Translations under genes and position numbers: made by a program | The notes under the pieces: model-generated | What the model was told of the DNA's origin: nothing | What the model saw: only the letters and a program-made list of their open reading frames with translations | The model's database searches: none | In this document: positions 61,309-61,443 of the stretch, one piece after another | How the letters are laid out: the number at the start of each line of letters is the position of its first letter | Position numbering within the stretch: the stretch's first letter is position 1 | NCBI RefSeq assembly: GCF_000027125.1 | Contig: NC_017626.1 | Length of the DNA stretch: 64,000 bases | Strand: one strand, 5' to 3' | DNA from: Escherichia coli 042 | GTDB taxonomy: Bacteria; Pseudomonadota; Gammaproteobacteria; Enterobacterales; Enterobacteriaceae

Positions 61309-61443
61309 CTTGTCCCACCTGTCCCAACCTGTGAGAAACACACATAACATACTGAATTATATTGGGTAATATCAGAAAAAGTGGGACAAGAGCGGGACAA
61401 GTTAAGGTGATTTTGGGACAAGTTAGGAGCATTTTGGGACAAG
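61309..61443. repeat. iteron cluster, putative island replication origin
   Basis: 2 copies of TGTCCCA (61311, 61320) and 4 inverted copies GGGACAAG (61383, 61394, 61415, 61436; last three at 21-bp spacing) flanking an AT-rich spacer, directly 3' of the primase gene. Confidence 0.6.

Follow-up and report, generated by a model that had tools for sequence, protein, structure and literature searches.

A six-iteron array downstream of a DUF927 initiator-helicase gene as the probable proximal unit of a split replication origin in an island of Escherichia coli 042

The array of short repeats at positions 61309–61443 of the analysed 64,000-nucleotide stretch of the Escherichia coli 042 genome (hereafter the window) is probably, with a likelihood of roughly 75%, unit A of a PICI/SaPI-type replication origin. 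It would be bound by the C-terminal domain of the DUF927 initiator encoded just upstream and would be complemented by a distal array, unit B, in a bipartite origin. That unit A is the cognate initiator-binding element of an origin is very probable in itself, and the chances that it needs or uses the distal unit are about even. The origin reading holds because the iteron tracks the C-terminal domain of the initiator and because the position and spacing of the repeats after the stop codon are conserved. The initial annotation proposed an iteron origin of satellite/PICI arrangement at this place. Its position, composition, and organisation do match SaPI and Gram-negative PICI origins (PMC6092414, PMC9371898), and the origin reading gains further from the upstream protein being a SaPI Rep homologue with whose C-terminal domain the iteron co-varies. 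The placement at 61309–61443 captured one array, which is only half of a 12-iteron origin, since a second array lies at 63598–63721.

The island and its initiator-helicase

Comparison with the empty site of E. coli K-12 places the island at about 55916 to 64071 (8.16 kb), so that it ends 71 bp past the window; it sits between yejM/tRNA-Pro(GGG) and yejO. The attachment core is the 3' end of the tRNA-Pro gene, with attL at about 55899–55915 (CTCTCGTGCCGACCAAA). The island is present at 95–99% identity in about 50–80 of 5,426 complete E. coli genomes, and all its genes are on the + strand. Its main genes and the adjoining tRNA gene are as follows.

55837–55913, + strand: tRNA-Pro(GGG), detected by ARAGORN
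56120–57364, + strand: tyrosine integrase (NCBIfam NF007246, E = 4e-167; PHROG 1)
57518–57808, + strand: ORF of an AlpA-like HTH regulator/excisionase (PHROG 66/2790)
59145–61283, + strand: DUF927 initiator-helicase, 712 aa, homologue of SaPI Rep/Cch
60960–61280, + strand: C-terminal domain of the initiator, about 107 residues, predicted winged helix, co-varying with the iterons
61520–62798, + strand: ssb, ProQ/FinO-like, and PerC-like genes, the cargo between the two units (NCBIfam, PHROG, RefSeq)

The RefSeq annotation of locus L001 gives a shorter, 63-aa version of the AlpA-like ORF. An Icd-like gene and then DUF4222 precede the DUF927 gene. This early-gene layout is that of Gram-negative PICIs and is common to EcCICFT073 (L026) and the EDL933 capsid-forming island (L004). 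The co-oriented int, alpA, and pri genes, the att site, and the small size characteristic of Gram-negative PICIs are all found in the island. As for packaging, the island contains no capsid or terminase genes, and a scan for lambda cosN with up to two mismatches found no site of this type in it; the island may be a reduced remnant.

Several other features of the island can be noted. Imperfect repeats of the form TTTAGTTATAyGTTTAGwTATACG lie near both ends, inside the island (56039–56065 and 63975–64000). The TTTAGTTATAyG repeats at these positions were considered as att sites and ruled out by the K-12 empty site; probably, they are integrase arm-type sites. A BRO-N/Ash-like region contains two Rfam matches to P4/P1-type immunity RNAs, isrK (58213–58289, 52.9 bits) and the C4 antisense RNA (58314–58401, 77.7 bits). 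The island has 11 Chi sites (GCTGGTGG) in 8 kb and the flanking chromosome 13 in 56 kb, a roughly sixfold difference in density. Eight of the island's sites lie on its coding strand, while 10 of the 13 chromosomal sites are on the opposite strand; related islands are similarly Chi-rich. Such enrichment may shield concatemeric or linear products of replication from RecBCD. Between 63113 and 63335 there are four GGATCATTT(y)G copies, two per strand, read as AAATGATCCCCCA at about 63113 and 63137 and as GGATCATTT at about 63283 and 63322. They flank a 130-bp stretch with a GC content of 23–30%, which contains TTGACA-16-TATAAC and makes this a further AT-rich element bounded by repeats.

The only Pfam family found in the initiator is DUF927 (residues 169–436, E = 2e-46); no D5_N/Pox_D5 domain was found by Pfam. 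A phmmer search of the PDB revealed similarity to SaPI Rep (8tch_A, E = 9e-15, residues 214–605) and to the SCCmec helicase Cch (5dgk, E = 7e-4). For the predicted C-terminal winged-helix domain, the closest counterpart is the one in SaPI Rep; thus, the protein is a SaPI-Rep-like helicase with a predicted C-terminal winged helix, as in PICIs and SaPIs. The name "primase-helicase" given to it earlier is supported as regards helicase and initiator, whereas the primase part is not established: its only basis is the "DNA primase" label of PHROG 1139. Residues 1–146 (59145–59585) match no Pfam family, the N-terminal 150 residues have no relative in the PDB, and the protein has no TOPRIM domain, unlike its longer E. 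coli relatives. The latter align only from residue 147 on, and their TOPRIM-containing N-terminus of about 356 residues is replaced in the window protein by an unrelated sequence.

The iteron units and their match to the C-terminal domain

The elements of the two units are listed below.

61309–61326, − strand: left set of unit A, two iterons with 9-bp spacing (TGGGACAAG, TGGGACAGG)
61327–61381: AT-rich spacer of unit A, 55 bp, 31% GC against 49% for the island
61382–61443, + strand: right set of unit A, four iterons with 11/21/21-bp spacing (TGGGACAAG, CGGGACAAG, TGGGACAAG, TGGGACAAG)
63598–63649, − strand: left set of unit B, three exact TGGGACAAG copies with 22/21-bp spacing
63650–63692: AT-rich spacer of unit B, 43 bp, 28% GC
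63695–63721, + strand: right set of unit B, three iterons with 9-bp spacing (TGGGACAGG, TGGGACGGG, TGGGACGGG)
63730–63741: (TA)6 run directly after unit B

Unit A consists of six 9-bp iterons with the consensus TGGGACAAG (up to two mismatches), against about 0.6 expected by chance. It adjoins the 3' end of the initiator gene, as PICI and SaPI origins do: the first iteron begins 26 bp past the stop codon at 61283, and a matching offset is found in about 110 relatives, all of which keep the left set at +22 to +45 after the stop codon. Two − strand and four + strand iterons stand on the two sides of the AT-rich region, so that each side has at least two iterons and the sides are opposed. Read on the + strand, the left set is CTTGTCCCA (61309–61317) and CCTGTCCCA (61318–61326), and within them are the two TGTCCCA repeats (61311–61317 and 61320–61326) that the initial annotation had pointed out after the stop codon. 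The AT-rich spacer of about 50 bp described there is the 55-bp spacer, a candidate melting region. The four inverted repeats given in the initial annotation, the last three phased at 21 bp, are likewise present as exact GGGACAAG copies on the + strand at 61383, 61394, 61415, and 61436, within iterons starting at 61382, 61393, 61414, and 61435. This right set is invariant in the loci L001, L005, L022, and L023, whereas the spacers vary.

Exact GGGACAAG occurs eight times in the 64-kb window, with 1.21 copies expected, and eight copies were reached in none of 100 shuffles. All eight are confined to two clusters of about 135 bp, 61309–61443 and 63598–63721. This excess and confinement indicate that the array is not a chance pattern; the 7-mer alone is not significant in the window, whereas the 8/9-mer and the clustering are. 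The window thus contains 6 + 6 iterons of one specificity with 2.2 kb between the units.

Unit B lies behind ssb-proQ-perC, and about 330 bp separate it from the island's right end. Its spacer contains an exact IHF consensus, AATCAATTTGTTA, at 63674–63686. Seven of eight distal B units have such a site, as do several contiguous ones, at a background of 0.08 per kb. Every iteron class retains a TTTTGTATATATATA run of variable length behind unit B; in the window, this is the (TA)6 run, a candidate for the element that unwinds. No DnaA box (up to one mismatch) was found in either unit, an Rfam scan revealed no RNA family in either array, and there is no terminator between the helicase gene and ssb.

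Conserved sequences adjoin both units. At the junction of unit A and the ssb module, where the downstream DNA becomes variable, a Chi site (GCTGGTGG, 61468–61475, + strand) lies inside the conserved motif CTGGCTGGTGG. The motif is found at the corresponding place in the Serratia loci L011, L014, and L015 (+152 to +164 after the stop codon), and a version with one mismatch is located between the A and B units of L003. Recombination may be concentrated at this Chi site, which would account for both the split and the mosaic structure. Behind unit B, the stretch 63724–63860 (CGAAAAATTGCATTCAGGAGGGGGGCGAAATTCC...) is 87–95% conserved near the right end of other PICIs and follows B units of another iteron class in L029–L032. 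A longer query containing this stretch was matched in 239 of 5,426 genomes, in 74 of them over at least 80% of its length; the remaining genomes mostly match only the short stretch 63724–63860. A small palindrome in it changes symmetrically between islands (TCCATnnnnnATGGA versus CCCATnnnnnATGGG). It might act as an att arm, in packaging, or as a site for a protein.

About 110 related loci were compared, from E. coli genomes, from a set of one genome per species (17 loci), and from IMG/VR (80 loci). In every locus, the repeats begin 22–30 bp after the stop codon and the geometry is constant. Unit A of the relatives has two or three inverted copies with 9-bp spacing, then an AT-rich stretch of about 50 bp, and direct copies at about +95, +106, +127, and +148. 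Across these loci, it is with the last ~107 residues of the initiator, and not with the helicase core, that the iteron class changes. The following C-terminal motifs and iterons correspond to each other.

...WQIRTPRLKH(M/L)KGARLRVYGLLL: iteron TGGGAC(A/G)A(G/C)
...WQIRTPRLKHLNNARPWTYVLLF: iteron TGGGAyAAG
...YQRKSPRIDGRQINVYV: iteron TGAACCAAC
...YKKKAL.K.GGKQHVFYVLMF: iteron TAACCC(G/A)C

Further iteron classes include TGAGACAAC and GAACCGr. Between the window protein and that of EDL933, whose iteron is TAACCCGC, the identity amounts to 94% over residues 200–600 but 38% over 606–712. When the initiators of L006/L008, which have the TAACCCAC iteron, are compared with that of EDL933, the identity is 72–74% in the core and 68% in the C-terminal domain. 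Hundreds of E. coli genomes resemble the window in nucleotide sequence up to about 60950 (residue ~602) and again from about 61490, in the ssb leader. The cassette exchanged between the islands is exactly the C-terminal domain plus the repeats, which is expected of an initiator with its cognate origin and argues against the repeats being sites for the product of a neighbouring gene. Judging by these comparisons, the iterons are specific to the cognate initiator, the C-terminal domain of about 107 residues is its putative specificity determinant, and there appear to be at least six interchangeable classes of iteron and C-terminal domain. The covariation of the two, graded across six or more classes, is new beyond the descriptions that we found.

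Recurrence of the split and competing explanations

The origin of most relatives spans about 330 bp and contains 12 iterons in two adjoining six-iteron units, A and B. The spacing of unit B mirrors that of unit A: one direct and two inverted iterons in 21-bp phase, an AT-rich spacer, and three direct iterons with 9-bp spacing. In the window, only unit A directly follows the gene. The same split layout is present in E. albertii L005 and in E. coli L001, L022, and L023. It recurs independently in Serratia L015 (iteron TGAACCAAC, unit B 4.6 kb downstream), in E. coli L030 at the dinD site (iteron TAACCCGC, 10.5 kb), in E. coli L032, a capsid-forming island at cspD-clpS (7.8 kb, unit B just after the terminase genes), and in thirteen IMG/VR loci (7.7–9.2 kb, six proximal and six distal sites each), where the cognate status of the distal units was judged by a direct 9-mer scan. 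The split is therefore seen in three iteron classes, with about 2–10 kb between the units. In Serratia sp. Ag1 (L015, 6904–10218), the cargo between the units matches tail-fiber, virion-structural, and baseplate-hub PHROGs rather than ssb/perC.

Many contigs are too short for a distal unit to be assessed. Where one is within reach of an A-only origin, it is always cognate and has six intact iterons, and this holds across at least four cargo types; the near-identical L034/L035 and L109 are A-only with no B unit within 10 kb. Of about 50 contiguous origins, only four have an extra distal unit B, and none of these is an exact match: L002 has GGGACrAC beside the gene and GGGACAAG in the distal unit; L029, a CFT073-type primase and origin with a distal TAACCCGC unit; L031, TGAGACAAC beside the gene and TAACCCGC in the distal unit; and L106. 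The orphan non-cognate units of L029, L031, and L106 indicate that unit B can be retained even where no initiator matches it. The identity of L002 to the window is 89.6% to the left of 61440 and 96% to the right of 61490, and we read the orphan B units as products of recombination at the ssb leader in which the left arm was replaced. The proximal units of L031 are in the order B-A, and the occurrence of the orders A-B, B-A, and A...B means that the units are separable modules. Among complete E. coli genomes, the A-only TAACCCGC junction occurs in about 105, the contiguous EDL933 type in about 141, and the window type in about 74–79; no contiguous A + B origin of the GGGACAAG type was found among them. 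Two extra partial copies of a TGAACCAAC origin, at −5735 to −5476 and −1153 to −894 from the stop codon, were seen in L013 (Yersinia pekkanenii), upstream of or within a disrupted helicase region; a complete origin also follows the stop codon. A tandem arrangement or a rearrangement of islands may account for these copies.

If the initiator works like SaPI Rep, its C-terminal winged helices would attach to the iterons, melting would occur in the AT-rich spacer and/or in the (TA)n run next to unit B, and the helicase would load itself. Six sites per unit suggest one hexamer per unit. It can be speculated, consistently with PMC9371898, that the twelve sites of a full origin fit a double hexamer. 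Units A and B would then act jointly as a bipartite origin, for example by initiator-mediated looping; alternatively, they might be two independent initiation sites. Unit A has no IHF site, no (TA)n run, and half the usual number of iterons, and so may not suffice. The cognate pairing seen in the sequence comparison favours a functional link between unit A and the distal unit B; the orphan units and the lack of measurable extra conservation at shallow divergence temper it. A broader proposal, which we make tentatively and at somewhat less than even odds, is that origins of the PICI/cf-PICI lineage are obligately bipartite. They would comprise two six-iteron units, each matching one hexamer, which cooperate either side by side (A-B or B-A) or 2–10 kb apart, bracketing the cargo or late region, and selection would keep the distant unit cognate. 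The 6 + 6 unit structure and the recurrent split around cargo with cognate halves are new beyond the descriptions found; no description of a split PICI origin was found in the literature, which was covered incompletely, and nothing relevant was found there on cf-PICI origins or iterons.

Alternatively, unit A could be an auxiliary cis element that binds the initiator and acts as an enhancer, as crr does in P4 and the gamma iterons in R6K, with unwinding and initiation taking place at unit B, next to its IHF site and (TA)n run. The exact IHF consensus (in 7/8 distal units) and the conserved length-variable TTTTGTATATATATA run are found only at unit B; in L004, 16 bp separate this run from the start codon that follows, which makes a promoter function unlikely. 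The separability of the modules also fits an enhancer. Nevertheless, we regard this explanation as unlikely, given that unit A alone satisfies the SaPI rule of at least two opposed iterons on each side of an AT-rich centre (PMC9371898), that no feature of the loci is conserved more strongly than its position beside the gene, and that A-only loci such as L034/L035 and L109 exist. Less credible still is that the proximal array is the whole origin and the distal unit is either an array that controls copy number or incompatibility through handcuffing or titration, as incA of P1 and incC of F do, or a recombination relic. The non-cognate or near-cognate distal units beside the complete origins of L002, L029, L031, and L106 speak for this explanation, and so does the mosaic make-up of the islands, whose breakpoints lie at the ssb leader. 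The distal iterons are also slightly decayed in some strains: at shallow divergence, a core mutation is found in L023 and one repeat is lost in L002, and these iterons are not clearly more conserved than their surroundings. When near-identical islands are compared, about four of 16 variable sites of the distal unit fall in iterons, as expected by chance, and none of about ten in the proximal unit (p about 0.07). However, every A-only origin with a visible distal unit has a cognate one with six intact iterons, in three iteron classes, while about 50 complete origins have no cognate distal unit, and a relic would hardly track the loss of the adjacent unit B so closely.

The repeats might also be thought of as transcriptional operators for ssb-proQ-perC, bound by the DUF927 protein or another island protein, rather than as an origin: unit A ends 77 bp upstream of ssb, and contiguous B units lie directly upstream of the next gene. 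This is very improbable. A promoter scan predicted no sigma-70-like promoter in either array, and the distal unit of the window has no gene downstream of it before attR. Moreover, the neighbouring genes on both sides recombine independently, so that the iterons co-vary with the helicase C-terminal domain only, and a homologous arrangement is experimentally supported as an origin in EcCICFT073 and SaPIs.

If the units do act at a distance, the island would offer a tractable bacterial case for the assembly of a self-loading MCM-like helicase on separated sites, and annotating only the region after pri would miss half of the element in about 180 of 5,426 complete E. coli genomes. The specificity module (the last ~107 residues and a 9-bp iteron), its six or more classes, and the 6 + 6 sites could help to design orthogonal replicons; the same three results could help to predict incompatibility between co-resident islands.

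Comparison with known systems

An initiator and origin that drive autonomous replication are known for EcCICFT073 and SaPIs (PMC6092414; 10.1101/2022.09.30.509847). The pri-ori segment of EcCICFT073 maintains a plasmid (PMC6092414) and was used as a conditional replicon for phage-delivered payloads (10.1101/2022.09.30.509847). SaPI Reps are self-loading hexameric helicases that bind and melt the iteron-containing origin without ATP; their C-terminal winged helix binds 6–12 iterons just downstream of rep, and the SaPI origin has at least two iterons on each side of an AT-rich centre, in opposite directions (PMC9371898). The window resembles these systems in the location of the origin 3' of the initiator gene, in the opposed short iterons around an AT-rich region, in the helicase of the DUF927/SaPI-Rep type, which is self-loading in SaPI, with a C-terminal winged helix (predicted in the window), and in its iteron number, which fits the published range of 6–12 (PMC6092414, PMC9371898). 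With Gram-negative PICIs, it shares the order int-alpA-...-pri-ori-ssb-perC in one transcription direction. Unit A itself is thus an ordinary member of the described PICI/SaPI origin class. The difference is that six iterons of the window follow the gene and the other six are 2.2 kb away. EcCICFT073 differs from the window in having a primase of another family and GGTAGAyA iterons; in its origin (L026, 10997–11284), these form a tight inverted pair at +15/+24 and an equally tight direct pair at +224/+233.

The satellite P4 offers a comparable layout of separated cis regions. Its alpha protein binds type I iterons in ori and crr, which are about 4.5 kb apart and both required. Like P4, the island is a small integrative element with two clusters of the same repeat kilobases apart (TGGGACAAG at 61309–61443 and 63598–63721), one of them beside the 3' end of the initiator-helicase gene, and it has C4/isrK RNAs and an Icd-like gene. 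The window initiator, in which Pfam finds only DUF927, is not of the P4 alpha type, and the iteron sequence and unit architecture differ as well. If the origin is obligately bipartite, it would represent action at a distance like that of P4 ori/crr or R6K in a system of the SaPI-Rep type, of which no PICI example is described.

Among iteron plasmids, distant or duplicated arrays are present in R6K, with gamma/alpha/beta looping, in P1 (incC/incA), and in F (incB/incC), and in P4 ori/crr and R6K the action at a distance proceeds via initiator–initiator contacts. The window shares with such plasmids several iteron arrays per initiator and an IHF site in an AT-rich origin segment. It is not a classical iteron plasmid origin: instead of a Rep_3/RepA-type winged-helix dimer, DnaA boxes, and direct iterons of 19–22 bp, it has a helicase initiator and 9-bp iterons in both orientations. 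By analogy with these systems, action at a distance or handcuffing is plausible in the window island.
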